From Thermoanaerobaculia bacterium (GTDB taxonomy: Bacteria; Acidobacteriota; Thermoanaerobaculia; Multivoradales; UBA5704), in NCBI GenBank assembly GCA_035544895.1, contig DASZZM010000009.1, positions 3,797-67,796 of the forward strand: 64,000 nucleotides of DNA, read 5' to 3'. A program made the translations under genes and the position numbers. The notes beneath the pieces were generated by a model. It was not told where the DNA came from, searched no databases, and saw nothing but the letters and a program-made list of their open reading frames with translations. Shown here in pieces: positions 22,448-44,805 of the stretch; position 1 is the first letter of the stretch; every line of letters begins with the position of its first letter.

Positions 22448-22620
22448 TGGCGTCTCCTTCGCGAAGAGTACCTGCTCGACGATATCAGGAAACCTGCGCA
22501 GCCTTGAGTTGAAGGGGGGCTTCCGGAGTTAATCTTTACACGGCAACCGACTCGCCCCGGAGGAATCCTGCTCGGAGCGATCCTGGAGAAAGCCGCGGGC
22601 AAGAGCTACGCCGATTTCCA

Positions 22621-22656
22621 TTGACAGGTGTCGAGAAATAGGCTCTACTGACACCC
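22621..22656 (+). promoter_or_regulatory. Putative sigma70-type promoter (perfect TTGACA -35) overlapping a GTGTC-N17-GACAC palindrome just upstream of vapB
   Basis: ttgacaggtgtcgagaaataggctctactgacaccc ATG. This is a typical autoregulated toxin-antitoxin operator layout. Confidence 0.35.
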
Positions 22657-22866
22657 ATGACGAAGACCCAGGTATACCTGCGCGAGGAGGAGCTGGCGGC
22701 TCTCCACGCCGTTGCGGAAAGATCTGGCAGAAGCGTGGCCGAGCTGGTGCGCGAGGCGATCAGGACGGTCTGGTTGCGGCCGGAGAGCAAGGGGCCGGTC
22801 GCCTTGTGGGATGGCCAACCTCGCCGCGCCGCCAGTGAGCACGACTCGATCTACGACGAGCCGTGA
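22657..22866 (+). CDS. vapB: Ribbon-helix-helix antitoxin (VapB/CopG-like)
   Basis: MTKTQVYLREEELAALHAVAERSGRSVAELVREAIRTVWL. Its stop overlaps the vapC start. Confidence 0.65.
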   Translation: MTKTQVYLREEELAALHAVAERSGRSVAELVREAIRTVWLRPESKGPVALWDGQPRRAASEHDSIYDEP

Positions 22867-23282
22867 TGCGCTCATCCGAACCGGTCTTCGTCGATACCGG
22901 AGCCTGGATCGCCCTGGCCCTCGCGCGCGATCCGCTGCACACGCAGGCGCGAGAGATCTGGGAGACGTTGCAAGGTGTAGGGGCTCGCCTGCGGACTTCG
23001 GTGCCCGTCGTCCTCGAAACTTTCACGTTTCTCGACCGCAACATCGCTCGCGACGTGGCCCTTGGCTGGAAGGACTCGCTCTCCGAGGTCGCCGGCCTGC
23101 GAATCCTCACGGTGAGGCCGGAGGATCTGGAGGAGGCGTGGCCGTACTTCCGGCGCCGGAACCTGCACAAGCTCTCGGCCGTGGACGCCACGAGCTTCGT
23201 CCTGATGACGCGCGCCAAGATTCGCACCGCTTTCGCGTTCGATCATCACTTCGCGGCCGCCGGGTTCCGCCTGGCAGGCTGA
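22863..23282 (+). CDS. vapC: PIN-domain toxin (VapC family), third copy
   Basis: MMRSSEPVFVDTGAWIALALARDPLHTQA...VVLETFTFLD...AVDATSFVLM is a PIN domain with its acidic residues. Confidence 0.75.
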   Translation: MMRSSEPVFVDTGAWIALALARDPLHTQAREIWETLQGVGARLRTSVPVVLETFTFLDRNIARDVALGWKDSLSEVAGLRILTVRPEDLEEAWPYFRRRNLHKLSAVDATSFVLMTRAKIRTAFAFDHHFAAAGFRLAG

Positions 23283-23323
23283 CAGACGGCGGTGCGCGCG
23301 GGTTAGAGTTGCCGCGCTCGGTA

Positions 23324-24517: not shown

Positions 24518-24532
24518 TCGAGGGTGACGACC

Positions 24533-25357
24533 ATGAGCTCGGCACGGCCGCAGGGGCCCGATTCCAGCCAGCCGCGGGAGGCGCACCTGACAGTCCGCGG
24601 CCTGACCATGTCCTATGGCAGCTTCGTGCTCATGCGCGGTATCGACTTTACGGTGCGGCGGGGCGACGTCTTCATCGTCATGGGGGGCAGCGGCAGCGGC
24701 AAGAGCACTCTGCTGCGCTACTTGCTCGGCCTCGAAGAGCCTGCTCCCGGCCAAGGCGAGGTCTTCTTCGGGGCCGAGAGCTTCACCCGCGCCGGCCCCG
24801 CGCGCCGCCAAGAAGTGCTGCGCGGGGTCGGCGTCCTCTACCAGGGTGGAGCGCTGTGGAGCGCGATGACGCTCGCCGAGAACGTGGCGCTGCCGCTCGA
24901 GCAGTACACCGACCTGTCCCCCGCCGCCATCGGCGAGCTTGCCTCGCTCAAGCTCTCGCTCGTCGGCCTGCGCGGCTTCGAGGACTTCTACCCTTCGCAG
25001 CTCAGCGGCGGCATGCAGAAGCGGGCGGCTCTCGCCCGCGCCATCGCCCTCGATCCGGAGATGCTGTTCTTCGACGAGCCCTCGGCCGGGCTCGATCCGC
25101 TCAGCTCGCGCCGCCTCGACGACCTCATCCTCGAGATGCGGGACAACCTTGGCTCGACCGTCGTGGTGGTCACCCACGAGCTGGCGAGCATCTTCGCCAT
25201 CGGCAGCAATGCTATCTTCCTCGATACGGAAAGCCGCTCCGTCATCGCTTCCGGCCCCCCCGCGGAGCTGCGCGAGCACGGGCCGGAAAGAGTCCGTCGC
25301 TTCCTCAACCGCGAGCGCGAAACCGCGGTGACCAGAGCCAGCGGCGCCCACCGATGA
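24533..25357 (+). CDS. MlaF-like ABC transporter ATP-binding protein
   Basis: Walker A GGSGSGKST, ABC signature LSGGMQKRAALARA, and Walker B LFFDEP. GTG 24524 is an alternative start. Confidence 0.85.
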   Translation: MSSARPQGPDSSQPREAHLTVRGLTMSYGSFVLMRGIDFTVRRGDVFIVMGGSGSGKSTLLRYLLGLEEPAPGQGEVFFGAESFTRAGPARRQEVLRGVGVLYQGGALWSAMTLAENVALPLEQYTDLSPAAIGELASLKLSLVGLRGFEDFYPSQLSGGMQKRAALARAIALDPEMLFFDEPSAGLDPLSSRRLDDLILEMRDNLGSTVVVVTHELASIFAIGSNAIFLDTESRSVIASGPPAELREHGPERVRRFLNRERETAVTRASGAHR

Positions 25358-26355
25358 AGAACAGGGCCAACCCCAAGCTCGTGGGCGCGTTCGTCGTCGG
25401 GGCCGTGGCGCTGGCGGTCGTCGGCGTCGGGGTGCTCGGCTCGGGCCGGCTGTTCCGCCAGGCGGTTCCTTTTGTGCTCTACTTCCCCGGCGGCGTCCAG
25501 GGGTTGAGGGTCGGGGCGCCGGTCAAATTCAAGGGGGTCGAGGTCGGCTCGGTCACCAACATCCTGCTCAACCTCGACCAGCCCGTATCGGGCGCCGCCC
25601 AGATCCCCGTCTTCATCGAGATCGACATGAAGAAGGTCCTGCGCAAGGGCGGGCCTCCCGATCTCGAGGATCCCGCCGTCTACCGCAAGTTCGTGGAGTG
25701 GGGGCTGCGCGCCCAGCTCGAAAGCGAGAGCCTGCTGACCGGCCAGCTGTTCGTGCAGCTCGACTTCCACCCCGAGATTCCGACGCGCTTCGTGCAGCCG
25801 CCGGACTACAGGTACCGGGAGCTGCCGACCGTTCCCAATCCCCTGGAGCGCGCGGGCCTGGCGGTCGAGGAGCTGCTCGCGGAGCTCAGGCGCGCCAACA
25901 TCTCGGGCCTGGCGCGCTCCGCCACCCAGGCGCTCGACGGCATCCACCGCTTCGTCGACTCGGCCGAGCTGCAGGCCGACGTCGTCGCCGTGGCCGCCAC
26001 CCTGCGCGGCGCGGACCGCGCCGTCGCCGACCTGCGCCGGGTGGCGAGCCACCTCGACCAGCAGGCGGCGCCGCTCCTGGCCAGCCTCGCCAGCACCTCC
26101 GAGCAGACCCGCCAGGCGGTCGCGCGCGCCGATTCCGCCATCGTTCGCGCCGATGCCGCGCTCGGACAGCTCCAGGCCACCCTCGCCGACGCGCGCTCCC
26201 AGGTCGAGCCCGGCTCGCCGGTGTCGAACAAGCTCTTGCGTACCCTCGATGAGACCGCCGCCGCGGCGCGCTCGGTGCGCGAGCTCGCCGACTACCTGCA
26301 GCGCAATCCGACCGCCCTGCTGCTCGGCCGGCCGGCGGCCGGGGAGCCGCGTTGA
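25354..26355 (+). CDS. MlaD/MCE-family substrate-binding protein
   Basis: N-terminal transmembrane helix followed by FPGGVQGLRVGAPVKFKGVEVGSVTNI (MCE domain) and a C-terminal coiled-coil region. ATGA coupling with mlaF. Confidence 0.75.
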   Translation: MKNRANPKLVGAFVVGAVALAVVGVGVLGSGRLFRQAVPFVLYFPGGVQGLRVGAPVKFKGVEVGSVTNILLNLDQPVSGAAQIPVFIEIDMKKVLRKGGPPDLEDPAVYRKFVEWGLRAQLESESLLTGQLFVQLDFHPEIPTRFVQPPDYRYRELPTVPNPLERAGLAVEELLAELRRANISGLARSATQALDGIHRFVDSAELQADVVAVAATLRGADRAVADLRRVASHLDQQAAPLLASLASTSEQTRQAVARADSAIVRADAALGQLQATLADARSQVEPGSPVSNKLLRTLDETAAAARSVRELADYLQRNPTALLLGRPAAGEPR

Positions 26356-27119
26356 CCTCCGGGATCCAGGTCGGCGGGGCGGTTGCCCTCGGACTGGCCC
26401 TGGCCGGTTGCTCGGCGCTCACGCCGCGGCCCGACCCGTCCCGCTTCTTCTACCTCGTGCCGCTCGGCGCCGAGGAAATCGCGCCGAGCGGGACCGGCGC
26501 CGAGGCAATCGCGCCGAGCGGGACCGGCGCCGAGGCAATCGCGCCGAGCGGCCCTGGCGCCGAGGCAATCGCAGGCAGCTCCGATGCGGCGGCCGCCGGC
26601 GGGGCGCAGCTCGCGGTCGGACTGGCGGAGATGGGCTTTCCCGCGTATCTCGACCGGCCCGAGTTGGTGACCCGGATCGCCGCCAACGAGCTTCGCCTGT
26701 CGTCCACCGACCGCTGGGCCGAGCCGCTGAAGGCGAGTTTCGAGCGGGTGCTGGCGGCGGACCTCGCGGCCCGGCTGGGGATCCGCGCGGTGGTGCGCTC
26801 GCCGTGGTACGGCACCACGCGGCTGGACTGCGTGCTGGTCATCGAAGTCGATCGCTTCGAGCCCGAGGTCGCACAGGGGGCACGGGGGGCACAGGGGCGC
26901 GCCTGGCTAGCTGCGCGCTGGACCATCAAGGACGGCGCCGGCAAGAAGACCCTGCGCAGCGGCAAATCGCTTCTCGACCGTCCACTCGCCGGCGGCGCAA
27001 CCCCTGGCAGAGCCGGCCCGGGGCAGGCGTCCGCCGCGGCGCTCAGCCAGGTCCTGGGCGACTTCAGCCGCGACCTCGCCCTCGCCGTGCGGCAGACCGT
27101 CCGCCCACCGGCGGGGTAG
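26352..27119 (+). CDS. ABC-transport auxiliary lipoprotein (YmbA/PqiC-like), containing EAIAPSGTGA tandem repeats
   Basis: Lipobox LALAGCSAL. TTG start coupled (TTGA) to the MCE gene. This is the fourth gene of the Mla/MCE operon. Confidence 0.55.
   Translation: MTSGIQVGGAVALGLALAGCSALTPRPDPSRFFYLVPLGAEEIAPSGTGAEAIAPSGTGAEAIAPSGPGAEAIAGSSDAAAAGGAQLAVGLAEMGFPAYLDRPELVTRIAANELRLSSTDRWAEPLKASFERVLAADLAARLGIRAVVRSPWYGTTRLDCVLVIEVDRFEPEVAQGARGAQGRAWLAARWTIKDGAGKKTLRSGKSLLDRPLAGGATPGRAGPGQASAAALSQVLGDFSRDLALAVRQTVRPPAG
26472..26575 (+). repeat. About 3.5 tandem copies of a 30-bp unit (gaggcaatcgcgccgagcgggaccggcgcc) encoding EAIAPSGTGA repeats inside the lipoprotein gene
   Basis: Direct repeats are visible in the sequence. 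The third copy has point changes (ggccctggc). Confidence 0.8.
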
Positions 27120-27170
27120 GGCAGCGCTTCTCCTTCAGGCTCCGACGAGCCAATATGGCAAGATGCTCCA

Positions 27171-27401
27171 ATGGCCTTCAGGAAGATGACCTTCACTCTT
27201 CCTGAGGAGCTCGCGAGGCGCTTCGTCAAGCGAGTGCCGGCCCGCGAGCGCTCGCGCTTCCTGGCCGAGGCGTTGGCCGAGAGGCTGGGCGAACGCGAAC
27301 GCCGGCTCATCCGTGCCTGTGAGATTGCCAATGGGGACCCGGAGATCTGGGCCATCGAAGCGGAGTTCGCTTCCTTGCCCGACGAGGTGACGGAGCCCTG
27401 A
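27171..27401 (+). CDS. Ribbon-helix-helix (CopG/antitoxin-like) small DNA-binding protein, with no obvious partner toxin
   Basis: MTFTLPEELARRFVKRVPARERSRFLAEALAERL is an RHH fold pattern. ATG 27186 is the likely true start. Confidence 0.45.
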   Translation: MAFRKMTFTLPEELARRFVKRVPARERSRFLAEALAERLGERERRLIRACEIANGDPEIWAIEAEFASLPDEVTEP

Positions 27402-27555
27402 GGCAGCCTGGTCTGCCACGGGACGCCGCCTGGTGGTCTGAGGTTCGTTCGTCGTCGCCGGGTGACGGCGGCCGAGCACCATCGTCATAGAGCAAGAAGC
27501 CTTTTCATTGGGATCGAAGCCGTGCGCCGACGGCGCTCGGCAGGAGGAGCAGGCC

Positions 27556-27855
27556 ATGCGTTCGTTTGCCAGCCTCAGCGAGGAGATCCTCGCCCTGGCG
27601 ATCTCGCAGGAGGAGGAGGACGCCAGGATCTATGACAGCTTCGCCATGGGGCTGCGGCAGGACCACCCCGAGGCGGCCCGGCAGTTCGAGGCCATGCGCG
27701 AGGAGGAGGACGGCCACCGCCACCGGTTGATCGAGCTCTACCGCCAGCGCTTCGGCGAGCACATCCCGCTGATCCGCCGCGACGACGTCAAACGCTTCGT
27801 CCGCCGCAAGCCGATCTTCGTCTTCCCGACCGGGATCCTGATCGGGAGCTCGTAG
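27556..27855 (+). CDS. Small rubrerythrin/ferritin-like diiron-motif protein
   Basis: Two E-x-x-H motifs (EEEDARIY...; EEEDGHRHRL) about 35 aa apart. GGAGGAG RBS before ATG 27556. Confidence 0.4.
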   Translation: MRSFASLSEEILALAISQEEEDARIYDSFAMGLRQDHPEAARQFEAMREEEDGHRHRLIELYRQRFGEHIPLIRRDDVKRFVRRKPIFVFPTGILIGSS

Positions 27856-27880: not shown

Positions 27881-28252
27881 TTACAGCCCCAGCGCCTGAA
27901 CCTGCCGCACTTGCTCCTGAAGGAAGGCCAGATCGGCCGCCTGCCGGTCTTTTTTCGGCGGCGGTGGCGGAGTATGTATGTTGCACGCCGTGCAATCTGT
28001 GACGTTGCCACAGGTGACGTTGCAATTCGTCCGGGCGGTGCAGGCCACATTGGGGTTGGTTACCTGTACTGTGCACACAGCGCAGTTCGCGCCCGTATCT
28101 GCCCCACAGGTATTGGGTTTGCAGTCCACGGGGTCATAGTCCCCCTGGCCCTCGCCTTCGGCAAGCCAAGGTGGCGCCCCGTCCGGCTCGTCGCCGCGGA
28201 GGTAGGCTTCCGGAAAAACGCTGCTCGTCAGCTCCTTGTACTTGAAGATCAC
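27881..28252 (-). CDS. Kinase-associated small Cys/Thr-rich protein A (conserved termini, hypervariable core); family of four in this window
   Basis: GTG start preceded by GGGAGGTGA. N-terminus MIFKYKELTSSV...PWLAEG, core with 10 Cys (CxxC pairs), C-terminus DLAFLQEQVRQVQALGL. It lies 237 nt downstream of kinase A on the same strand. Confidence 0.6.
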   Translation of the reverse strand: MIFKYKELTSSVFPEAYLRGDEPDGAPPWLAEGEGQGDYDPVDCKPNTCGADTGANCAVCTVQVTNPNVACTARTNCNVTCGNVTDCTACNIHTPPPPPKKDRQAADLAFLQEQVRQVQALGL

Positions 28253-28488
28253 GGTTCACCTCCCTGGGGTATGCCCCGGTAGCACAGCCCCGCCCCTCAA
28301 CGCCATGCGGCGCTGGGCCCTACGGCCCGGCTCAGGCTGCGAGGCTCTGGGAGCAAGTTCTCGACCATTGCCTTGGATATGCCATATTCTGGAAACTATA
28401 GCAAACCATTAAAGCAACTAGCAAGGAAGATCGTGACGGCAAGTGAGACCCATGGGCCGGCCTTGCCCGCGCACGGGTGTGCCGCGCG

Positions 28489-31400
28489 TCAGGCCAGCAT
28501 CAACATCCAGATGTGCCCTTCCTCGTTCTCGCGCACCAGGTAGAAGGAGCGGTCGCCTGGACCGATGCACACCCACTTGAACGCCGAGTTCGCCGGCGGC
28601 TCCAGCACCAGCCGGACCACCCCGCTGCGGCTGTCGATCAGGAAGAGCCTGCCTTCGGCCAGGTAGACGAGCCGGCTGCCATCGCGCAGCCACTCGGGCA
28701 GGTCGCCCTTGGCGAGCCGGGAGGTGCGGCCCGATGAGAACGAATAGATGACGACATCTGGGCCCACGGTGCCGGCCAGCGAGCGCCCGTCGGCAGACCA
28801 GGAGGTGGCGGTGAAGCGATCCTTCCCACCGCCCGCGACCGGCAGCTCGTCGGGGGTACGCTCGCCCGGCGGCTTGCCCAGGTCGACCAGGGCCGTGCCC
28901 ACGTCATCGCCATGCAGCTTGAGAAGGCAGGAGAGCCTCCGGCCGTCCGGCGACCAGAGCGGAAAGTAGGTGGGGCCCGGCCCGTCGCTGCGGGTGATCT
29001 GCTCGAGCCCGCTGCCGTCCGGACGGATGGTCCACAGCTCGTAGCGCCCGCTGCGGTTCGAGTAGAAGGCGAGGCGGGAGCCGTCGGGGGACCAGACCGG
29101 CTGGCGGTCCTTGTAGCGGTCGTTGGTGAGCTGCCGGAGGTCACTGCCGTCTTGGCGGACGACGAACAGGTCTTCCTGCGGATGGGTCGAATGGAAGGCG
29201 ACCCAGCTGCCGTCCGGCGACACGTCGCAAGAGCGCACGAAACGCGAGCCCTCGGTGATCGCCTGCGACCGCCCGACCACCTGGCCTGCAGCGGGATCGA
29301 AGGCGACCTTCTCGAGGTTCGATTTGCCGTCGCGGGTGGCATAGACGATCCGCCGACCGTCGCGCGAGATGCTGAGCAGACCGCTCCACTGCGCAGGAGT
29401 TGACAGCGGCTCGGGCTCTCCCAGGCTTCGGCCCGTGGCCTCGTCGATGCCCAGGCGCCACAGGTTCATCGCGCCGCTGCGGTCGCTGGCGAAGTAGAGG
29501 TACTTGCCGTCAGGAGCCCAGGCCGGGCTCCAGTTGAGGTACTGGTCGTCGACGAGGGCGACCGTTTCGGCGCGGTCTGCCGAAAGCGCCGGGCCTCTGT
29601 CCGGCGCCGGTGGGGACGGCAGATCCCTGCCCAGCAGGTGATCGGCAGACGTCCCCGACCTCGGGGGACCGGTGCGGTCGGTCTGAATTGTCGAGATGAC
29701 TCGGCGCGCGCTGCCCCTGGCGACTCCCCAGTAAGCGATCCGCCAGCCGTGCGGCGACCAGGCCGGCTGCACCGCGTCGTCGGTGGCGAGCTGGCGTCTG
29801 GCGCCGGTCGCGACGGTGACCCGCCAGATCCTGCTCTCCGAGGATCTGATTGCCGGGTTGTTGACGCCCTCGCTGGCGCACAGCACCTCCGTGCCGTCGG
29901 GGGACCAGGCCGGGTTGTAGCCGAAGTCGGTAAGCCGGCGCACCGACTCCCCGGTGGCGCCCATGACGAAGATGCCTCCGCCGTCGCGCTCTGAGCGGAA
30001 CGCGATCTGCTGACCGTCGGGGGAGAAGGCGGGGTGAGTGTCCGATGCCGGTGAGTCGCGGCTGAGGTCGATCTGATTTCCCCCGCCCGCGCGCTGCAGG
30101 TAGATGTGGCTCCTGCCGCCTGAGGCTTTGGTATAGAGGAAGAAGTTGCCGTCCGGCGAGATGGTGGGGAACGACTCGCTCCCGGCGAAGTCGGTCAGCT
30201 GGGTGAAGGTCGCCCGGACCGGCTTCACGGTGCCGCCCGGCGGGGTGGACTTGACCGGACCGGAGCGCAGAAGCAGGTAGACGGCGACGGCGACCGCCAC
30301 CGCAAAGCCGGCGGCGGCAAGGCGTCGAGGGAGCTTCCCGGTCACGATGGCCGGAGGAGCGCCGGTTCCGGCCTCGCCCTCCGGCCGGGTGCCGGAAGAA
30401 GGCAACGCCGGCCCTCCGGCGGCTTCCGAAGCCCGGCCCGCGGAACCCTTCGAAGCCCGGCTCCTGACACCTTCGTCTCCACGCCCCGTCTCGGCTTCCA
30501 GCTCGCCTGGCCCAGCCCCGGCCTCCGCCGCCCCGACTTCGGCCGCGCCAGGACGGCCCGGCATCGCCCCGCCCGGAAAGGTGGGACGGTCGCTCAGGGT
30601 CTCCTCGCCCGTGCTCGCGAAGGCGCCGCCGCCCCCTGTCCGTCCGATCCCGGGCAGCGCCGCGATCTCGCCGAAGGCCGCCGCCACGTCGCGGGCGGTC
30701 TGTGGCCGCCGGCGGGGGTCTTTCTCGAGCAGCCGGTCGACCAGGGCGCCGAGCTGGCGCGGCAGGCCGGGACGGATCGTCGCGAGGGGCGGCGGGTGAT
30801 GGGTGAGGATGCGGCGCAGCGACTCGACGTGGCTGCCGCCGCGAAAGGGCGACTGGCCGGTGAGGAGCTCGTAGAGCAGCACGCCGAGCGAGAAGAGGTC
30901 CGAGCGGGCGTCGGCCTCGCCGCCGCGGACCTGCTCGGGCGAGATGGTGTGGAAGGTGCCCAGGACGATGCCTTCGGCGGTCAGCGACTGCTCGGCGCTC
31001 TGGCTGTCCTGCTGCCAGACCGACTTGACGAGGCCGAAGTCGAGGATCTTGACCGCTCCCGAGGCGGTGACCATGACGTTTTCGCTCTTCAGGTCGCGGT
31101 GCACGAAGCCGGCGGCGTGCGCCGCCGCCAGGCCGAGGGCGATCTCGCGGGCGAAGCGCACGGCGACGGCTGGATCGAGCGGCCCGCGCGCGGCCACTTC
31201 GGCGAGGCTTTCGCCCTCGACGTATTCCATGACCAGGGCGTCGCTGGCGCCGCCGCCACCGGAGTCGCCGGCGGTCACGAGAGCGAAGATCTGCACGATG
31301 GCGGGGTGGTTGAGCCGCGCCGCGGCCCGCGCTTCGCGGCGGAAGCGCTGGCGCTGGACTTCCGAGAGCGGCCCGTCGTGGCGGATGCGCTTGATGGCGA

Positions 31401-31698
31401 CGAGCCTGCCGAGGCGGTCGTCGAAGGCCAGGTACACCTCTCCCATGCCGCCGCGCCCGAGCCCCCGCTCCACGCGATAGGCGCCGATTCGGTCGCCGGG
31501 CCGCAGGGCAGAAGGGGAGGGACGGGAGGCCGGGTGCAGGGGGGAGCCGGCCTGGTCGAGAGGGGCGTCCTCGGCAGAACCTTCGGCCGACCGGGCTAGA
31601 GGGTGAGGTCTCTCGGCCGGGGTCTGCTCGCCGGCCGCCTCTGGCGAGCGCGCGGATGAATCGCCCTGGTTGACAGAAGGTTTCGGCCCCGGATGCAT
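28489..31698 (-). CDS. Transmembrane Ser/Thr protein kinase with a periplasmic TolB-like (PD40/WD40-like) beta-propeller, cassette A
   Basis: Kinase motifs GRGGMGEVYLAFD, VAIKRI, HRDLKSENVMV, ILDFGL and SDLFSLGVLLYELLTG. A Gly/Ala/Pro-rich linker is followed by the TM helix LAAAGFAVAVAVAVYLLL and then many FSPDG/WSPDG PD40 repeats. Confidence 0.85.
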   Translation of the reverse strand: MHPGPKPSVNQGDSSARSPEAAGEQTPAERPHPLARSAEGSAEDAPLDQAGSPLHPASRPSPSALRPGDRIGAYRVERGLGRGGMGEVYLAFDDRLGRLVAIKRIRHDGPLSEVQRQRFRREARAAARLNHPAIVQIFALVTAGDSGGGGASDALVMEYVEGESLAEVAARGPLDPAVAVRFAREIALGLAAAHAAGFVHRDLKSENVMVTASGAVKILDFGLVKSVWQQDSQSAEQSLTAEGIVLGTFHTISPEQVRGGEADARSDLFSLGVLLYELLTGQSPFRGGSHVESLRRILTHHPPPLATIRPGLPRQLGALVDRLLEKDPRRRPQTARDVAAAFGEIAALPGIGRTGGGGAFASTGEETLSDRPTFPGGAMPGRPGAAEVGAAEAGAGPGELEAETGRGDEGVRSRASKGSAGRASEAAGGPALPSSGTRPEGEAGTGAPPAIVTGKLPRRLAAAGFAVAVAVAVYLLLRSGPVKSTPPGGTVKPVRATFTQLTDFAGSESFPTISPDGNFFLYTKASGGRSHIYLQRAGGGNQIDLSRDSPASDTHPAFSPDGQQIAFRSERDGGGIFVMGATGESVRRLTDFGYNPAWSPDGTEVLCASEGVNNPAIRSSESRIWRVTVATGARRQLATDDAVQPAWSPHGWRIAYWGVARGSARRVISTIQTDRTGPPRSGTSADHLLGRDLPSPPAPDRGPALSADRAETVALVDDQYLNWSPAWAPDGKYLYFASDRSGAMNLWRLGIDEATGRSLGEPEPLSTPAQWSGLLSISRDGRRIVYATRDGKSNLEKVAFDPAAGQVVGRSQAITEGSRFVRSCDVSPDGSWVAFHSTHPQEDLFVVRQDGSDLRQLTNDRYKDRQPVWSPDGSRLAFYSNRSGRYELWTIRPDGSGLEQITRSDGPGPTYFPLWSPDGRRLSCLLKLHGDDVGTALVDLGKPPGERTPDELPVAGGGKDRFTATSWSADGRSLAGTVGPDVVIYSFSSGRTSRLAKGDLPEWLRDGSRLVYLAEGRLFLIDSRSGVVRLVLEPPANSAFKWVCIGPGDRSFYLVRENEEGHIWMLMLA

Positions 31699-31810
31699 CT
31701 TCGCGCTCCAGGCCTTGGCGGCGCGACGATTGGTGAGCAGGCCTCGACCTTGAGCTAGAGAAGGATAGCAGAAGAAACGAAAGGCTTGTGGTCGGGCCGC
31801 ACGAAAAGGC

Positions 31811-32125
31811 TCATCCTCCGGCGGTCCGCGCCGAGATACCCTGGGCCAGAATCTCCCTCACCTGCTCCTGGAGGATGGCCAGATTCGTCGCTTTTTTCTT
31901 CTCGGGAGGGAGACAGGGGTTCTCCTCGTGCTCGGCAGTGCAACATGGGCTGTTTCCACTGCCGGGGTCGCCTTTTCCTTCGTCCTCTTCGTCCTTGCAC
32001 TTCTGGGTAGTGCAGCCCGGGGTGTCGTAGTCCTTGGCGAGCCACGGCTCCGTTCCGTCGAGCTCGCCGTCGGGAGGGGCTTGGGGCGACACGGGGCGCA
32101 TCAGCTCCTTGTATCTGAAGGCCAT
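31811..32125 (-). CDS. Kinase-associated small Cys/Thr-rich protein B
   Basis: ATG preceded by AGGAGGTGAGAA. N-terminus MAFRYKELMRPV...PWLAKD, core with 5 Cys, C-terminus NLAILQEQVREILAQGI. It lies 120 nt downstream of kinase B. Confidence 0.6.
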   Translation of the reverse strand: MAFRYKELMRPVSPQAPPDGELDGTEPWLAKDYDTPGCTTQKCKDEEDEGKGDPGSGNSPCCTAEHEENPCLPPEKKKATNLAILQEQVREILAQGISARTAGG

Positions 32126-32244
32126 TTCTCACCTCCTGGGACATGTCATGGCAATGCTGCCTGAACTGTGCTACAGCGACCAACGTATCTTAGCGACTAA
32201 TCCGAGAACTGACAAGAGTCATGCTCGAGCCTCTCGACGCCCAC

Positions 32245-35200
32245 TCAGCCCATCGTGAGCATCCAGATGTGGCCCTCGCCACGCTTGTGTGCCAGGTAAA
32301 GGACGCGGTCGTCCGGGCCGACGCTTACCCAGGTGAAGGTCGAGCCCGGCGGCGCTGCCAGCACCGGCCGCGCCGCGCGGCTGCGGACATCCAGCAGAAA
32401 GACTTTCTCGCCATCCAGGTAGACGAGGCGGCGGCCATCGTGCAGCCACTGCGGAAGACTGCCGCTTTCCGTTACCTTGGAATAGCGCGCGGTCTGAAAG
32501 GAATAGAGCACCACGCCAGGCCGATCGGTATCGCCTGCCAGCCACTGGCCGTCGGGTGACCAGGAAGTGGCTTCGAAAACCCCGCCGGCGTAGGCGGGCA
32601 GCTCGGCGGAGACACGGTGGGCCAGCGGCCTGCCGAGGTCGATCAGCGCGGTCACCCGCAGGTTCAGCAGGCAGGCCAGCCGCCGGCCGTCCGGCGACCA
32701 CAGCGGGTTGACCGCGCTCCGGTCGTTGCTGCTCGTGAGCTCTTCCAACCGGCTGCCGTCGGGCCGGATGCTCCACAGCTCATAACGGCCGCTGCGGTTC
32801 GAGTAAAAGGCAACTCGCGATCCGTCCGGCGACCAGACCGGCCGGCGGTTCCTGTAGCTGTCGTTGGTGAGCTGTCTCAGCTCGCTGCCGTCGGAGCGGA
32901 CGATGAAGACGTTCTCTTGCGGCACCTGGGAGTGGAACGCGATCCAGCGCCCGTCGGGGGAAGCGTCGCAACTGCTTACCAAGCGAGAGCCGCCGATGAG
33001 GACCCGCGGCGCCTCGACGGCCAGACCGGCGATCGGGTCGAAGGCGGCTTTCTCCAGGCCCGACTTGTCGTTGCGAGTGGCATAAGCAATCCGCCGGCCG
33101 TCCCTGGAGATGCTCAGCAGCCCGCTCCACCGGGCAGGCGTCGACAGCGGTTCGGGGCGCCCCAGGGCCTGGCCCGTGGTCTCGTCGGCCGCTACCCGCC
33201 ACAGGTTCATCGAGCCGTTCCGGTCGCTGGCGTAATAGACATGTTTTCCGTCGGGGGCCCAGACCGGATTCCAGTTCAGATACTGGTCGTCGACGAGCGG
33301 CACGGCTTGTTCGCCGGCCGCCAGGCCGCGGCGGTCTGCCGGGATTGTCCACAGGACCCGGCGTCCCTTGCCCATCGGTATCCCCAGGTAGGCGATCCGC
33401 AGGCCGTGCGGCGACCAGCTCGGCTGCGCCGCATCGCCCCTGGTGACCAGTTGTCTCGCGCCGGTCGCTACCTTGACTCGCCAGAGCTGGCTGTCGGGCC
33501 CGCGCGTCTGAGGATCGGTCACCCTTTCGGTGGCGCAGAGCACTTCCGTGCCGTCGGGCGACCAGGCGGGGGCGTAAGCGAAATCGGTGAGGCGGCGCAC
33601 CGACTCACCGGTCGAGCCCATGAGGAAGATCCCGCCGCCGTCGCGCTCCGAACGGAAGGCGATCTGCTGGCCATCGGGGGAGAAAGCCGGCTCGGTGTCC
33701 GACGACGGCGAGTCGCGGCTGAGGTCGATCGCGTTGCCCCCGCCGACCCGCTGCAGAAAGATGTGGCTCTTGGCCCCCGTCGCCCTGGTGTAGAGAAAGA
33801 AGTTGCCGTCAGGCGAGAGGCTGGGGGAAGACTCTGTCCCCTCGAAGTCGGTGAGCTGACTGAAGGTCGCCCGGATCGGCGCCGCCGCGTCCGTCCTGGA
33901 GCCAGCCTTGCCCGTGCCGGAGTGGAGCAGCAGGTAGCCGGCCACGGCGGCCGCCAACGCGAGGATGGCAGCGGCGAGGCGGACAGGCAGCTTCCTGGTC
34001 GCCATGACCGGGGGAGCGCCGGTCCCGGCATCGCCCTCCGCCAGCCGGCCGGAGGAATGCCGTACCGGCGCGAGGGCGCCTCCCGAGGCCCGGCCCACGG
34101 CGTCTTGCGAGACCCGGCCCATGCCGCGATCGCCAGGCCACCCCGTCTCCTCCTCCGACTTCGCCGGCATGGCCTCTGCCTCGCCGTAGCCGCTCGCCAG
34201 CGCCCCACCGGGAAAGGTGGGCCGATCGCTCAGAGTTTCTTCGCCCGTGCTCGCGAACCCGCCGCCACCTCCCGGCCCTCCGAAACCGGGCAGAGCCGCG
34301 ATCTCGCCGAGGGCCGCCGCCACGTCGCGGGCGCTCTGCTGCCGTCGCCGCGGGTCTTTCTCGAGCAGCCGCTCGACCAGGGCGCCGAGCTCGCGCGGCA
34401 GGCCGGGACAGACCGTCGAAAGCGGCGGCGGCTGGTAGGTGAGGATGCGGCGCAGCGACTCGACGTGGCTGGCGCCGCGAAAGGGCGACTGGCCGGCCAG
34501 CAGCTCGTAGAGCAGGACGCCGAGCGAGAAGAGGTCCGAGCGGGCGTCGGCCTCGCCGCCGCGGACCTGCTCGGGCGAGATGGTGTGGTACGTGCCCAGC
34601 ACGATGCCCTCGGCGGTCAGCGACTGCTCGTCGCCCTGGCTGTCTCCTTGCCAGACCGACTTGACCAGGCCGAAGTCGAGGATCTTGACCGCCCTCGAGG
34701 CGGCGACCATGACGTTCTCGGTCTTGAGGTCGCGGTGCACGAAGCCGGCGGCGTGCGCCGCCGCCAGGCCGAGCGCGATCTCGCGGGCGAAGCGCACGGC
34801 GACGGCGGGATCGAGCGGCCCGCGCGCCACCATGTCGGCGAGGCTCTCGCCCTCGACGTATTCCATGATCAGGGCGTCGCCGCCGCCGCCGGAGTCGCCG
34901 GCGGTCACGAGATCGAAGATCTGCACGATGGCCGGGTGGTTGAGCCGCGCCGCCGCCCGCGCCTCGCGGCGGAAGCGCTGGCGCTGGACTTCCGAGAGCG
35001 GCCCGTCGTGGCGGATGCGCTTGATGGCGACCAACCTGCCGAGGCGGTCGTCGAAGGCCAGGTACACCTCTCCCATGCCGCCGCGCCCGAGCTGGCGCTC
35101 TACGCGATAGGCGCCGATCCGTTCGCCGGGCCGCAGAGGGGAAGGGGAGGGACGGGAGGCGTCGCCTCCTCTCCCTACATGCCCTGGTCCAGGGTCTGCC

Positions 35201-35262
35201 GAAGCTGGTCGCGAAGGAGGGCCAGCTCCGCTGCCTGCCGGTACCCGGGGTCCTTCTTGCAT
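32245..35262 (-). CDS. Transmembrane Ser/Thr kinase with TolB-like propeller, cassette B
   Basis: Same architecture as kinase A and strongly similar to it. The annotated ATG start at 35262 overlaps the 3' end of small-protein gene C by about 88 nt; no alternative in-frame start exists downstream of the overlap. Confidence 0.85.
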   Translation of the reverse strand: MQEGPRVPAGSGAGPPSRPASADPGPGHVGRGGDASRPSPSPLRPGERIGAYRVERQLGRGGMGEVYLAFDDRLGRLVAIKRIRHDGPLSEVQRQRFRREARAAARLNHPAIVQIFDLVTAGDSGGGGDALIMEYVEGESLADMVARGPLDPAVAVRFAREIALGLAAAHAAGFVHRDLKTENVMVAASRAVKILDFGLVKSVWQGDSQGDEQSLTAEGIVLGTYHTISPEQVRGGEADARSDLFSLGVLLYELLAGQSPFRGASHVESLRRILTYQPPPLSTVCPGLPRELGALVERLLEKDPRRRQQSARDVAAALGEIAALPGFGGPGGGGGFASTGEETLSDRPTFPGGALASGYGEAEAMPAKSEEETGWPGDRGMGRVSQDAVGRASGGALAPVRHSSGRLAEGDAGTGAPPVMATRKLPVRLAAAILALAAAVAGYLLLHSGTGKAGSRTDAAAPIRATFSQLTDFEGTESSPSLSPDGNFFLYTRATGAKSHIFLQRVGGGNAIDLSRDSPSSDTEPAFSPDGQQIAFRSERDGGGIFLMGSTGESVRRLTDFAYAPAWSPDGTEVLCATERVTDPQTRGPDSQLWRVKVATGARQLVTRGDAAQPSWSPHGLRIAYLGIPMGKGRRVLWTIPADRRGLAAGEQAVPLVDDQYLNWNPVWAPDGKHVYYASDRNGSMNLWRVAADETTGQALGRPEPLSTPARWSGLLSISRDGRRIAYATRNDKSGLEKAAFDPIAGLAVEAPRVLIGGSRLVSSCDASPDGRWIAFHSQVPQENVFIVRSDGSELRQLTNDSYRNRRPVWSPDGSRVAFYSNRSGRYELWSIRPDGSRLEELTSSNDRSAVNPLWSPDGRRLACLLNLRVTALIDLGRPLAHRVSAELPAYAGGVFEATSWSPDGQWLAGDTDRPGVVLYSFQTARYSKVTESGSLPQWLHDGRRLVYLDGEKVFLLDVRSRAARPVLAAPPGSTFTWVSVGPDDRVLYLAHKRGEGHIWMLTMG

Positions 35263-35477
35263 CCCGAAGAGGGGTTTTGCTCGGAGTTAGGAGGAGGACA
35301 CTCGGGCCCGGGTTTTTCGCGGCATCCGTCGGTCCGATTCCCGATCGTGACGGGAGGGGGACAGTCTTCGGTGTCCCCGCAGTCTTCGCGATGCTCCGAT
35401 GGATGGGGACAGTCTCCCTTATCCTCCTTCGCCGCCAGCCCGACGCTGCCGACCAGGTCCTTGTACTTGAAGGCCAT
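35175..35477 (-). CDS. Kinase-associated small Cys/Thr-rich protein C
   Basis: ATG preceded by GGGGGTGATGA. N-terminus MAFKYKDLVGSV, core with 6 Cys plus PPP motifs, C-terminus ELALLRDQLRQTLDQGM. It lies 128 nt downstream of kinase C. Confidence 0.6.
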   Translation of the reverse strand: MAFKYKDLVGSVGLAAKEDKGDCPHPSEHREDCGDTEDCPPPVTIGNRTDGCREKPGPECPPPNSEQNPSSGCKKDPGYRQAAELALLRDQLRQTLDQGM

Positions 35478-35604
35478 TCATCACCCCCTGGGGAAAACCC
35501 CGCGATGGCCGTTCCCCTCCAAGAGGAACCAGCATGAGCGCAGCCCCTCGAACAGTGGGCCGCGGATCTCAAGATTAAAGAGATGATAGCAGAGAAAGCG
35601 ATGC

Positions 35605-38600
35605 TCAGCTCACCGCCAGCATCCAGATATGGCCTTCGCCGCTCTCGCGCACCAGGTAGACGGCACGGTCGTCCGGGGCGATGCTCAGCCCGAAGAAGGA
35701 CGAATTGGCCGCGGGCTCCAGCATCAGCCGCGTCTGCCGGGTGCGGACGTCCACCAGGAAGAGCTTGCCCGCGTCGAGGTAGAGGAGGTGGCGGCCGTCG
35801 TGCAGCCAGTGCGGATTGAAGCCCCGCTCGGTCAGCCGGGAGCACCGGTGGCTGCTGAACGAGTAGAGCCCGATGCCCGGGAGGTTCGTCTGGTCTGGCC
35901 GCATGAATGTGCCCGCCAGCCAGCGCCCGTCGGACGACCAGGCGCTGGCCTCGAAGATTCCTTCGCAGCCGCCGGCCACGGGCAGCGCGGCGGGCACGCG
36001 CTCGGCCGGCGGCCGGGCGAGGTCGATCAGCGCCGTGCCACGCGCATCCAGAAAAACGCCGGCAAGCCAACGGCCGTCCGGTGACCACGACGGAACGACG
36101 ATGCCGGGGCCTCGCGTCCGGGTGATCTGCTCGAGCCTGCTGCCGTCGGGGAGAATGGTCCACAGCTCGTACCTGCCGCTGCGGTTCGAGTAGAAGGCAA
36201 GGCGCGAGCCGTCCGGCGACCAGACCGGGACGCGGTCATTGAATCGGTCGTTGGTGAGCTGCCGCAGCTCGCCGCCGTCCAGGCGGATGACGAAGAGGTC
36301 TTCCTGCGGGACCAGGGAGTGGAAGGCGATCCGCCGGCCGTCGGGCGAGACCTCGCAGGAGCGCACGTGACGCGAGCCCTGAAGAAGCGCCCGCGACGTT
36401 CCCGCGGGCCGGCCGGCCACCGGATCGAAAGCGATCGTTTCCAGGGCCGACCTGCTGTCGCGGCTCTCGTAGACGATCCGCCGGCCGTCCCGGGCGACGC
36501 TCGGCAGCCCGCTCCACCGGGACGGCGTGGTCAGCGCCTCGGGCTCCCCCAGCGGCTTGCCCGTGGCCTCGTCGAGAGCCACCCGCCAGAGATTCATCGA
36601 GCCGCCGCGGTCGCTGGCGAAGTAAAGGTGAGCGCCGTCCGGCGCCCACGCCGGGCTCCAGTTGAGGTGCTGGTCGTCGACGACCGGCAAGGCCTCGCCC
36701 GTGCTCACCGGGGTGGCGCGGTCGGCGGGGATCGTCGACACCACGCGGTGCGCCGTGCCGGCGGCAAGGCCCCAGTACGCGATGCGCCGGCCGTGCGGCG
36801 ACCAGCTCGGCTGCAGACCTTCGCCTTCGAACACCAGGCGCTTGGAACCGCTCGCCACGCTCACCCGCCAGAGCCGGCTGGCGGAAGTCCTGCTGGCTGG
36901 ATCGTCCGTCGAGGCGGTCGCGCACAGCACTTCGCTGCCGTCGGGCGACCAGGCCGGGTTGTAGCCGAAGTCGGTGAGGCGCCGAACCGATTCGCCGGTG
37001 GCGCCCATGACGAAGATGCCTCCACCGGTGCGCTCCGAGCGGAAAGCGATCTGCTGGCCGTCAGGGGAGAAGGCCGGCTGCGTGTCGGATGCCGGCGAGT
37101 CGCCAGTGAGATCGATCGGGTTGCCGCCGCCCACGCGCTGCAGGAAAATGTGGGTCGCGCCCCGGGTCGCCCTGCCGTAGAGGAAGAAAGCGCCGTCCGG
37201 CGAGATGCTGGGGAAAGACTCTGTCCCCTCGAAGTCGGTGAGCTGGGTAAAGCTAGCGCCGACCGCCGCCCCTGCCGCCGGAAGGGCCGGCCTGTTCGCG
37301 CCGGGGCGCAGCAGGAGATAGCCGCCCATGGCAGCGAGCACCGCGAGCGCCGCGAGCGCCGCAAGCACCGCGGCGCCGAGCCGCAGACGCAGCCTTCCTG
37401 CCCCAGCGTCCCGGGCGCCCGCACCCGGGCCGGTGCGGGCGTCGGTCGCGGCAAGGCCGGGGGCATGGCCTTCTCCCGGCAGCCCGGCGCCCTCCCTTCC
37501 TTCCTGCTCCTCCGCGGCCCCCGGCGCGGCCGGCAGCGCCGCGCCGGGAAAGGTGGGGCGGTCGCTCAGCGTCTGCTCGGCCGCGCTCGCGAAGCCGCCG
37601 GCCCCGCCGTCTCCGTCTCCGATACCGGGCAGGGCGGCGATCTCGCCGAGCGCCGCCGCCACGTCGCGGGCGGTCTGCGGCCGCCGCCGCGGGTCCTTCT
37701 CGAGCAGCCGCTCGACCAGCGCGCCGAGCTCGCGCGGCAGCCCGGGAAGGATCGTCGAGAGCGGCGGCGGGTGGAGAGTGAGGATGCGCCGCAGCGACTC
37801 GACGTGGCTGCCGCCGCGGAAGGGCGACTGGCCGCTGACGAGCTCGTAGAGCAGCACGCCGAGCGAGAAGAGGTCCGAGCGGGCGTCGGCCTCGCTGCCC
37901 CGCACCTGCTCGGGCGAGATGGTGTGGAAGGTGCCCAGCACGACGCCCTCGGCGGTCAGCGACTGCTCCGCGTTCTGGCTCTCCTCCAGCCAGACCGACT
38001 TGACCAGGCCGAAATCGAGGATCTTGACCCGCCCCGAGGCGGTGACCATGACGTTCTCGCTCTTCAGGTCGCGGTGTACGAAGCCGGCGGCGTGCGCCGC
38101 CGCCAGGCCGAGCGCGATCTCGCGGGCGAAGCGCACGGCGACGGCCGGATCGAGGGGCCCGCGCGCCACCATCTCGGCGAGGCTTTCGCCCTCGACGTAC
38201 TCCATGACCAGGGCGTCGCCGGCGCCGCTGGCGTCGACCGTGAGCAGATCGAAGATCTGCACGATGGCCGGGTGGTTGAGCTGCGCCGCCGCCCGCGCCT
38301 CGCGGCGGAAGCGCTGGCGCTGGACGTCCGAGAGCGGCCCGTCGTGGCGGATGCGCTTGATGGCCACGAGCCTGCCCAGGCGGTCGTCGAAGGCGAGGTA
38401 CACCTCGCCCATGCCGCCGCGTCCGAGCCGCCGCTCCACGCGATAGGCGCCGATCCGTTCGCCGGACCGCAGGTCTGAGCTGGAAGAACGGGGGGTGGGG
38501 CGGCGGGGCGCCTCTTCCGCGGCGGATCCGCCGGCCGAGCCCGCGGGAGACTCAGCCTCGGCCGAGGTCTGCTCGCCGGACTCTTCGGGAGCGCGCGCGG

Positions 38601-38646
38601 ATGAGTCGCCTTGGTGGCTGGAAGGTTTCGGCCCAGGCTTCATCAT
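35605..38646 (-). CDS. Transmembrane Ser/Thr kinase with TolB-like propeller, cassette C
   Basis: True start MMKPGPKPSSHQGDSSARAPEESGEQ matches the kinase A N-terminus (MHPGPKPSVNQGDSSARSPEAAGEQ). AGGAG RBS. The ORF-track 1465-aa version is a read-through fusion with an Arg/Pro-rich junk N-terminus. The start lies 33 nt after the stop of the TIR-NACHT gene. Confidence 0.85.
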   Translation of the reverse strand: MMKPGPKPSSHQGDSSARAPEESGEQTSAEAESPAGSAGGSAAEEAPRRPTPRSSSSDLRSGERIGAYRVERRLGRGGMGEVYLAFDDRLGRLVAIKRIRHDGPLSDVQRQRFRREARAAAQLNHPAIVQIFDLLTVDASGAGDALVMEYVEGESLAEMVARGPLDPAVAVRFAREIALGLAAAHAAGFVHRDLKSENVMVTASGRVKILDFGLVKSVWLEESQNAEQSLTAEGVVLGTFHTISPEQVRGSEADARSDLFSLGVLLYELVSGQSPFRGGSHVESLRRILTLHPPPLSTILPGLPRELGALVERLLEKDPRRRPQTARDVAAALGEIAALPGIGDGDGGAGGFASAAEQTLSDRPTFPGAALPAAPGAAEEQEGREGAGLPGEGHAPGLAATDARTGPGAGARDAGAGRLRLRLGAAVLAALAALAVLAAMGGYLLLRPGANRPALPAAGAAVGASFTQLTDFEGTESFPSISPDGAFFLYGRATRGATHIFLQRVGGGNPIDLTGDSPASDTQPAFSPDGQQIAFRSERTGGGIFVMGATGESVRRLTDFGYNPAWSPDGSEVLCATASTDDPASRTSASRLWRVSVASGSKRLVFEGEGLQPSWSPHGRRIAYWGLAAGTAHRVVSTIPADRATPVSTGEALPVVDDQHLNWSPAWAPDGAHLYFASDRGGSMNLWRVALDEATGKPLGEPEALTTPSRWSGLPSVARDGRRIVYESRDSRSALETIAFDPVAGRPAGTSRALLQGSRHVRSCEVSPDGRRIAFHSLVPQEDLFVIRLDGGELRQLTNDRFNDRVPVWSPDGSRLAFYSNRSGRYELWTILPDGSRLEQITRTRGPGIVVPSWSPDGRWLAGVFLDARGTALIDLARPPAERVPAALPVAGGCEGIFEASAWSSDGRWLAGTFMRPDQTNLPGIGLYSFSSHRCSRLTERGFNPHWLHDGRHLLYLDAGKLFLVDVRTRQTRLMLEPAANSSFFGLSIAPDDRAVYLVRESGEGHIWMLAVS

Positions 38647-41951: not shown

Positions 41952-42017
41952 ATGAAGGAATGATAGGGCAGCGGCGGGGGTGCGCACGAGCTCATGGAAC
42001 CCGGCTCCCGATGACGA

Positions 42018-42033: not shown

Positions 42034-42115
42034 CAGGGCCGCGGCCCCACGCACGTGGTTCCAGGCCACAGCCAAGAGCCGAGAGAAGTCTCAGCGTCCC
42101 CATCGCGCTCCTACA

Positions 42116-44053
<1,938 letters not shown>

Positions 44054-44329: not shown

Positions 44330-44602
44330 CTACGGGCCCAGCGCCAGGGCCTGCCGCAGCTGCTCCTGGAGAAGGCCCAGATTGGCAGCCAGCCGCGGCG
44401 TTTTTTGGTCCTTGCGTGCGCCTGAGGGCGAGCAGGGCGCCGTTTGGCCACAGGTCGGGACACACTGCGCGGTATTGTCCTTGCAGCTCTCCTGTTTGCA
44501 CTCCCCGTCGGCTGCTGCCCACGGTTCCATTCCGTCCGGCCATCCACCCCAAGGCCGGGCCACCGGCAGCACACTACTCATTAGATCCTTGTGCTTGAAA
44601 AT
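44330..44602 (-). CDS. Kinase-associated small Cys/Thr-rich protein D
   Basis: Likely GTG start (MIFKHKDLMSSV) preceded by AAGGAGGTGACC; the ORF-track start at 44611 adds MTV. The core has 6 Cys (ECKQESCKD...CVPTCGQTAPCSP). The C-terminus is NLGLLQEQLRQALALGP. It lies about 200 nt downstream of kinase D. Confidence 0.6.
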   Translation of the reverse strand: MFKHKDLMSSVLPVARPWGGWPDGMEPWAAADGECKQESCKDNTAQCVPTCGQTAPCSPSGARKDQKTPRLAANLGLLQEQLRQALALGP

Positions 44603-44805
44603 CACGGTCACCTCCTTGGGGCAGCCCCGGCGAAGTCGTCCCGTTTCCCCTCCGTCCCTTGCTTGCGTGCCTCGACTCGCGCCGAGCGCGCCAGGGACAA
44701 GAAAGGCCGACCCAGGTCGCGCTCGAATCCTCGACGAGTCGAGACCTGGAGCGAACAGTCAGCGATGCGGGAATTATAGACCGAAGACGGCAACCCGCAA
44801 GCCCA

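Follow-up and report, generated by a model that had tools for sequence, protein, structure and literature searches.

In a 64,000-nucleotide stretch of a Thermoanaerobaculia genome (contig DASZZM010000009.1; hereafter the window), four genes for small proteins (A to D) each follow a gene for a membrane kinase, and one of them, C, runs for 88 nt into the open reading frame (ORF) of the kinase gene next in line, kinase B. What are these small proteins, and why do the two genes overlap? An earlier reading of the sequence alone (hereafter the sequence-only reading) had taken the overlap, together with unusually strong Shine-Dalgarno (SD) sequences, as signs that the small proteins are made in excess of the kinases, as substrates, ligands, or titrating partners. 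Comparison with related loci points us to a different answer, which we hold with reasonable though by no means full confidence: The small proteins are lanthipeptide-type precursors, and the 88-nt overlap is the scar of a rearrangement. The four units, all on the minus strand of a window with a GC content of ~70%, comprise the following features.

~48024-44806, minus strand: kinase D, preceding its partner small gene D (with MTRKPTRPS at 48024 as an uncertain start)
44606..44617, minus strand: SD sequence of D, AAGGAGGTGACC (duplex energy -16.6 kcal/mol)
44330..44605, minus strand: small gene D (91 aa; GTG start at 44605)
35605..38646, minus strand: kinase 3, the upstream partner of small gene C (1013 aa from MMKPGPKPS)
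35478..35488, minus strand: SD sequence of C, GGGGGTGATGA
35175..35477, minus strand: small gene C (100 aa; ATG start)
35175..35262, minus strand: overlap of C and kinase B, 88 nt (last 29 codons of C including the stop, and first ~29 of the kinase B ORF)
35152..35160, minus strand: putative rearrangement breakpoint (5' side, the 3' flank of C as in the relative L002; 3' side, kinase A-like from codon ~57, ASRPSPS...)
32245..35262, minus strand: kinase B ORF (1005 aa, MQEGPRVPAG... from ATG 35262; similar to its paralogs only from ~35160; catalytic motifs intact)
32126..32137, minus strand: SD sequence of B, AGGAGGTGAGAA (duplex energy -16.2 kcal/mol)
31811..32125, minus strand: small gene B (104 aa; ATG start; NCBI locus tag VHQ90_01735; no C-x3-T/S motif)
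28489..31698, minus strand: kinase A (1069 aa: Ser/Thr kinase, transmembrane segment, PD40 beta-propeller; full-length N-terminus)
28256..28264, minus strand: SD sequence of A, GGGAGGTGA (duplex energy -16.8 kcal/mol)
27881..28252, minus strand: small gene A (123 aa; GTG start; VHQ90_01725; six C-x3-T motifs)

The small-protein family and a candidate split synthetase

Across all six frames of the window, searches with hidden Markov models (HMMs) gave exactly four members of the small family and as many of these kinases, and every one of the small genes sits 3' of a kinase gene (4/4), in a kinase-then-small-gene repeat with gaps of 127, 119, 236, and 200 nt. No Pfam or NCBIfam model matched the small proteins. 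An exhaustive profile search of 1.84 billion representative proteins returned 34 matches, 32 of which were small proteins of 72-146 aa (a word-indexed search recovered few members), and three independent searches altogether turned up the family, namely among the representative proteins, as 79 further genes in 80 genome loci, and in metagenome contigs. Common to all members are an N-terminus of the type M(A/S)FxYxDL(M/V)xxV (in one form MAFxYxDLMxSV) and a C-terminus of the type RxAAxLALLQEQLRQxLAQG, on either side of a hypervariable core that is rich in Pro, Gly, Thr, Glu, Cys, and Asp; AlphaFold predicted protein C to be disordered except for a helix at residues 77-99. The sequence-only reading had held the small ORFs to be genuine genes rather than cryptic ones, and the conservation of both termini and of synteny across the family, seen in three independent searches, bears this out. 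On record, C and D are found only in Logan assemblies, and A and B are also present with NCBI locus tags in the protein collection; the deposited annotation probably misses C, which lies under the kinase B call, and D.

The cores carry short repeats such as CPDDT, CEEGT, CGINT, and CTIAT, in which a Cys is followed four residues later by Ser or Thr. This spacing was strongly overrepresented: Of 250 core Cys residues, 139 had Ser/Thr at C+4, as against 32 expected from shuffling, and so did 165 of 267 Cys (37 expected) in an independent survey set of 63 proteins. Within the window the C-x3-T/S motifs are unevenly distributed, with six in A, two in D, one in C, and none in B. The repeats also vary between branches of the family. 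A subfamily encoded 5' of the lyase genes described below (loci L025, L026, L033, L057, and L088) has five to seven copies of CTPSPP in place of C-x3-T; another, encoded 3' of the kinase-LanC gene, has exactly two CGQxT-type motifs with an acidic stretch between them; and several further members of 140-220 aa bear an added coiled-coil-like tail.

The genomic context of the family outside the window is what suggests a function. In soil metagenome contigs and in chromosomes of metagenome-assembled genomes, the small gene is followed by a gene for a protein of 362-442 aa and then by a gene for a protein of 772-861 aa with Pkinase and LANC_like domains. The full cassette, with a kinase gene ahead of the small gene, was found at L003, L006, L010-L013, and L096, and at L014 without the upstream kinase; at L003, which belongs to a close relative, it forms a fifth unit, a small gene followed by the lyase gene. 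The 362-442 aa protein has a phospho-Ser/Thr-lyase fold and stands alone. Its family (the 362-aa family) has at least 1181 members, whose source names, where shown, all read "hypothetical protein" except for one JGI label beginning "putative intracel…"; its members gave no Pfam domain and no sequence match in Pfam, NCBIfam, or PDB. For the larger fusion protein, the best NCBIfam match was LanL, at 116-118 bits against a cut-off of 650, and it was limited to positions 237-808 of that model, that is, to the kinase and LanC parts, so that the fusion lacks a lyase part. It keeps the motifs HxDxxxxN, DFG, GxAHG, WCNG, and CCG. Canonical LanC has CHG at the place of the last of these, and the third putative zinc ligand would here be Cys instead of His; CCG is invariant in the LanC-like domain of the kinase-LanC proteins of L006, L010, L012, L013, and L014. 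Judged by these domain assignments, the stand-alone lyase and the kinase-LanC fusion together look like a split lanthipeptide synthetase.

We surveyed how regularly these genes keep company by scanning species-representative genomes with the lyase alignment (the same scan with the small-protein alignment gave no matches). At least 259 lyase loci were found, mostly in Thermoanaerobaculia, Holophagales, and other Acidobacteriota, with a few in Chloroflexota, Gemmatimonadota, Armatimonadota, and Actinomycetota, and 80 of the 259 were kept for analysis. The kinase-LanC gene lay 3' of the lyase gene in nearly every one of these 80 loci that reached far enough. Among the 79 small-family genes in them, 45 lay directly 5' of the lyase gene; 47 of 66 lay directly 3' of a kinase-PD40 gene, and another kinase-PD40 gene came next after 13, as it does in the window. 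In Thermoanaerobaculia and Holophagales, each candidate precursor is paired with a membrane Ser/Thr kinase. Because small genes elsewhere sit directly 5' of the lyase and kinase-LanC genes, the small proteins are probably abundant enzyme substrates, namely precursors of peptides that are made on ribosomes and modified after translation (RiPPs). The proposal that they are substrates, ligands, or titrating partners therefore stands in part: A substrate role fits, but the likelier enzyme is the split lanthipeptide synthetase, which adjoins family members elsewhere, rather than the adjacent membrane kinase. In published work on lanthipeptides in Acidobacteriota and Thermoanaerobaculia, on class VI, and on stand-alone lyases, we did not find this architecture described.

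The locus is a tandem array of four modules, each a membrane kinase gene followed, 119-236 nt on, by a small gene with a strong SD sequence. In the mechanism that we propose, Ser/Thr residues of the small protein would be phosphorylated, eliminated, and cross-linked to Cys as (methyl)lanthionine by the split synthetase, which for the window copies would be encoded elsewhere in the genome and act in trans.

Translation signals and the start of kinase B

We evaluated SD strength as the energy of the duplex with the 3' end of 16S rRNA and compared the small genes with 37 heuristically chosen large ORFs of the window, each of which was allowed the best of up to eight candidate starts. The four small-gene SD sequences, at -16.0 to -16.8 kcal/mol, beat all 37 (median -8.5, minimum -15.6 kcal/mol), and the kinase starts are far weaker (-7.0 kcal/mol for A, -6.5 for kinase 3, and -1.9 for kinase B at ATG 35262). 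The near-ideal SD sequences noted before are the strongest in the window, and reading the sequence confirmed their strings and the start codons, among them the GTG starts of A and D. The four are paralogous copies of one conserved element, CCCAGGAGGTGA, rather than independent observations, and this element remains recognizable as far as distant loci: In the 80-locus survey, GGAGG stood at -16 to -4 in 61 of the 79 family genes and an SD of at least 7 nt in 30 of them. At C, the window has GGGGGTGATGA where the 97%-identical relative L002 has AGGAGGTGATGA (1300-1317), a single A-to-G change, by which the GGAGG core of this SD is weakened beside the truncated kinase B. A strong SD across the family fits high-level output of a substrate peptide, and to this extent agrees with the earlier suggestion that the small proteins are made in excess of the kinases; the overlap, as shown below, is not part of an expression design. 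Candidate sigma-54 promoters 5' of the small genes were dropped, a reading of the sequence having given one plausible match for A and none for B or C, and we found no terminator or attenuator structure 3' of the small genes (z-scores of -0.6 to +0.65).

The geometry of the overlap is as the sequence-only reading had it. The only ATG, GTG, or TTG in the kinase B frame 5' of the kinase domain is ATG 35262, which lies 88 nt inside C (stop at 35175), and the next canonical starts past that stop, ATG 35076 and GTG 35067, both fall within the glycine-rich loop. The first ~29 codons of kinase B accordingly run in another frame, -1 relative to C, over residues 72-100 of C and thereby over its predicted C-terminal helix. 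The packing described as tight and partly overlapping is so at C and kinase B, whereas the remaining gaps measure 112-236 nt. The 20 nt upstream of ATG 35262 amount to essentially no SD (-1.9 kcal/mol), and the GC content at third codon positions (GC3) of the overlap is 0.86 in the C frame versus 0.38 in the kinase frame, with 0.87 for kinase B as a whole, so that the overlap codons carry the codon bias of C only. Features expected of translational coupling are lacking, given a start 88 nt before the C stop, an SD of -1.9 kcal/mol, and an overlap that is not conserved. The kinase B product starting at ATG 35262 had no exact match on record in the gene-call collection. An independent Logan contig (run SRR12277192) spans 36808-35063 at 100% identity and crosses the C/kinase B junction, which is thus present in reads.

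Other routes to a kinase B product were tried and rejected. For a C-kinase B fusion by programmed -1 frameshifting, reading of 35175-35262 gave no canonical X XXY YYZ heptamer, and the sequence downstream folded no better than shuffled sequence (z = -0.46). As noncanonical starts past C there are only the near-cognates CTG 35136 and ATC 35118, both at least 27 nt from the SD-like GGGAGAGGAGG that follows the C stop; this run was itself ruled out as a ribosome-binding site, since it also occurs after gene A, where no gene follows, and so belongs to the paralogous flank.

An alignment of the 5' regions points to the origin of the overlap. An N-terminal extension of ~70 residues (MxPGPKPSxxQGDSSAR...) is common to kinases A, 3, and D, while kinase B matches its paralogs only from ASRPSPS, which is codon ~57 of kinase A and lies ~18 nt past the C stop; it has lost its own first ~56 codons, its ribosome-binding site, and the intergenic region. 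The breakpoint lies 16-23 nt past the C stop, and the bases up to it, GGGAGAGGAGGCGACG, are ordinary small-gene 3' flank (the equivalent after small gene A is TAAGGAGAGGACGCACG). In L002, the C ortholog is followed by the same flank to 15-16 nt past its stop and then by a PemK/antitoxin/PIN region with no kinase, and there are more structural differences between the window and L002 near the junction. In all of the 12 other small-gene-to-kinase junctions that we compared in other genomes, the kinase has its own start (12/12), 11 of these starts at 45-301 nt past the small-gene stop and one, at L031, overlapping the stop by 4 nt. The small gene at L031 (1782-2573) encodes a 263-aa family member with CTIAT repeats and a long extra C-terminal tail. 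Some of these kinases have only ~8 residues before the kinase domain, so that the extension lost from kinase B, unlike the start codon, was probably dispensable.

With a unique breakpoint, no counterpart in L002 or at the 12 other junctions, and no codon adaptation in the kinase frame, the view of the overlap as an expression design did not survive, nor did the overlap prove to be conserved when related genomes were compared. On this comparative evidence, we regard the 88-nt overlap as an ordinary accident, a rearrangement scar, and not a conserved design. The rearrangement would have joined DNA 16-23 nt past the C stop to codon ~57 of kinase B and, in doing so, deleted the start, the ribosome-binding site, and the upstream spacer of kinase B; in this DNA of 70% GC, the kinase frame is by chance open back to an ATG within C. 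Kinase B would now be either weakly translated from an SD-less ATG or an incipient pseudogene.

In each of the window kinases, a Pkinase domain is combined with a hydrophobic segment and PD40 propeller repeats, for which the predicted topology would be a cytoplasmic kinase domain, one transmembrane segment, and a periplasmic propeller. All Hanks-type motifs are there in kinase B (GRGGMGEVY, VAIK, HRDLK, DFG, and SPEQ; Pkinase E-value 4.9e-47). A, B, and 3 share ~90% identity over their kinase domains, where the synonymous divergence (dS) is 0.16-0.21, as against a dS of ~0.7 in the linker and propeller and ~64% identity in the propeller region, which suggests either gene conversion confined to the kinase domain or far stronger constraint on it. 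A branch-specific relaxation of kinase B was rejected, since its pairwise ratios of nonsynonymous to synonymous substitution (dN/dS) are indistinguishable from those of the other paralogs.

Known systems and rival explanations

Compared with the hallmarks of LanA precursor genes, the small genes show Cys and Ser/Thr at recurring spacing (the C+4 counts above) and a conserved candidate recognition segment with a variable core, in that both termini are conserved around the hypervariable part; adjacency to a synthetase gene is absent for the window copies and present for homologs elsewhere (45/79). The enzyme at the related loci does not have the make-up of LanL, as it consists of kinase and LanC only and the lyase fold resides on a separate protein. 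Class IV (LanL/LanA, e.g., VenL/VenA of venezuelin) resembles the present system in its Hanks-type kinase fused to a LanC-like cyclase, in the putative zinc-ligand motifs (here WCNG and CCG), in having a phospho-lyase fold, and in small Cys- and Ser/Thr-rich peptide genes directly upstream; unlike in class IV, the lyase here is a separate protein of 360-440 aa, the fusion scores far under the LanL cut-off (116 versus 650 bits), and the precursors have two conserved termini, C-x3-T/S repeats, and paired membrane kinase-PD40 genes. In class V, the kinase is a separate APH-like protein and the cyclase is not LanC-like; from LxmK/LxmY of lexapeptide and the HopA1-type lyases of thioamitide clusters, the present system accordingly differs in its fusion of kinase and LanC-like cyclase. 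Class III LanKC enzymes (CurKC, ThurKC, and SalKC) and class VI LanKCb share the logic of kinase, lyase, and cyclase but are single polypeptides, and here the conserved helix is C-terminal in the peptide. Leader recognition in class III relies on a conserved motif in a predicted helix, of which the C-terminal helix could be the analog. The diversified precursor paralogs, conserved in their recognition parts but hypervariable in their cores, recall prochlorosin, where one ProcM serves many dispersed ProcA peptides away from the synthetase, an arrangement that would apply to the window as well; the synthetase class is different, prochlorosin has no paired kinases, and modification in trans is for the window a conjecture. 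Class III cyclases have no zinc ligands (PMC7268733), and domain-based miners would class any Pkinase plus LANC_like protein as class III or IV (PMC7268733). LanKCb, the enzyme of class VI (He et al. 2023, cited in PMC12328550), is to date known only from streptococci (PMC12328550). A 2026 coral-microbiome paper characterized other acidobacterial clusters, with class III AciKC and class II ThaM (PMC13083261). What is most likely new here, as far as these comparisons reach, is the combination of a stand-alone lyase, a kinase-LanC fusion, and this precursor family, which is undescribed in the literature that we found.

Several points weigh against the reading of a precursor family and a rearrangement scar. 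HMM searches found no lyase or LanC homolog within the 64-kb window, (methyl)lanthionine formation in family members is a prediction, and the constant pairing with kinase-PD40 genes is unexplained by a pure precursor model. Given their few or absent C-x3-T/S motifs, B and C may escape modification, and constraint on the core of C is weak or undetectable (dN/dS of ~0.9 against its ortholog, from only 16 substitutions). In C-x3-T/S, the Cys precedes the Thr with which it would pair, and rings of this orientation are the less frequent ones among characterized lanthipeptides. As for the scar, kinase B has a pairwise dN/dS of 0.36-0.41, the same as its paralogs, with no sign of decay yet.

One rival view, that of the sequence-only reading, gives the adjacent kinases the small proteins as substrates, ligands, or titrating partners and takes overlap and SD sequences as a design for excess expression. 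It agrees with the 47/66 count and all four window units, with small-gene SDs far above those of the kinases, with promoter-like sites 5' of A and B, with an activator gene adjoining unit D that combines FHA and sigma-54 domains, and with propellers and peptide cores that diverge beside ~90%-identical kinase domains (A, B, and 3), as would fit cognate pairs. We nevertheless consider it unlikely, as the overlap is a nonconserved breakpoint, the family also occurs with lyase and kinase-LanC genes without a kinase-PD40 gene (L014 and many survey loci), and a ligand role would require export, the propeller being periplasmic and the small proteins having no signal peptide. That a small protein is a ligand or partner of its adjacent kinase is, by itself, possible. 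Taken together, homogenized kinase domains, a divergent remainder, and hypervariable cores are compatible, speculatively, with cognate sensor-peptide pairs. Peptide-signal/receptor-kinase cassettes offer a likeness: As in NisA/NisK (nisin), AgrD/AgrC, and ComC/ComD, a small, highly expressed peptide gene lies beside a membrane kinase with an extracytoplasmic sensor, and peptide and sensor diverge together among the window paralogs; unlike them, the window kinase is not a histidine kinase but one of the Hanks Ser/Thr type, with a PD40 propeller, and export and sensing of the peptide are hypothetical. A combined version, in which the modules are receptor-ligand pairs, the split synthetase matures each peptide, and the peptide is then exported and recognized by the propeller of its own kinase, with phospho-Thr readers such as the FHA-sigma54 activator downstream, strikes us as rather improbable. 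Still more doubtful is the idea that the small proteins are unmodified cytoplasmic proteins, rich in Cys and metal- or redox-binding, whose link with the kinases is co-occurrence only: Cys, His, Asp, and Glu abound in the cores and the window has no synthetase, but 45 of 79 family genes lie directly 5' of lyase and kinase-LanC genes, the C+4 Ser/Thr periodicity is expected of enzyme recognition or ring formation and not of metal sites, and the cores are hypervariable and predicted to be disordered.

For kinase B itself, the precursor-and-scar reading leaves two fates, and the case that the gene is dead is nearly balanced, with a slight lean on our part against it. On this account, the 5' truncation took the start, and the upstream ATG is an ORF-finder artifact of high-GC DNA, as the missing SD at ATG 35262 (-1.9 kcal/mol), the kinase-frame GC3 of 0.38, and the absence of a product with this start from the gene-call collection would suggest; the neighboring B and C are also the poorest in family motifs. 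Against it stand an intact ORF of 1005 codons with all catalytic motifs, a dN/dS like that of the paralogs (although a recent truncation would leave no trace yet), and the N-termini of ~8 residues elsewhere, by which a short or foreign N-terminus need not inactivate. To an assembly chimera of near-identical kinase paralogs we give almost no credence. The ~90% identity of the kinase domains of A, B, and 3 could invite one, and short-read contigs do break in the near-identical kinase domain (L001 ends at 35063), but the breakpoint lies in unique sequence 16-23 nt past the C stop, outside the repeated part, and the independent Logan contig crosses it at 100% identity.

Neighboring genes and significance

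Three further features adjoin the units of the array.

42116..44053, minus strand: FHA-GAF-sigma54 activator (with HTH), directly 3' of unit D
38682-42050, minus strand: TIR-NACHT-FGE-sulfatase-domain protein (1122 aa), between kinase units D and 3
27556-27855, convergent to the array: truncated rubrerythrin-like gene, matching only positions 1-80 of a 137-position model

The activator beside unit D is a possible phospho-Thr reader for the kinases. The TIR-NACHT-FGE protein has an NLR/STAND-like architecture, of a type known from anti-phage defense proteins. Downstream of the array, the structure is variable (21662-27855, compared with 1633-4114 of L002): L002 has a PemK toxin at the place of the truncated rubrerythrin-like gene, and ~3.8 kb of additional sequence in the window (23301-27142), encoding MlaD and an ABC auxiliary lipoprotein, separates an antitoxin-like gene from a PIN/RHH pair. 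This ABC_trans_aux lipoprotein (26352-27119, plus strand) contains a tandem repeat near its N-terminus, three copies of EAIAPSGTGA. On the far side of the array, two large He_PIG/PKD-repeat proteins are encoded at 48290-53055 (plus strand), where a GC content of 0.65 and a negative GC skew are unlike the rest of the window.

The C/kinase B junction serves as a warning that long out-of-frame overlaps in high-GC DNA are not to be taken for regulation. The lanthipeptide-type system is widespread, yet its lyases bear only the name "hypothetical protein" or none. It may add a new synthetase architecture to lanthipeptide biosynthesis, may supply a precursor model for genome-mining tools in Acidobacteriota, and may link RiPP production to Hanks-kinase signaling. 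If the modules were indeed cognate receptor-ligand pairs, the tandem array would amount to several private channels of peptide signaling, and Acidobacteriota would possess a Hanks-kinase-based, lanthipeptide-mediated system of quorum sensing or kin recognition.

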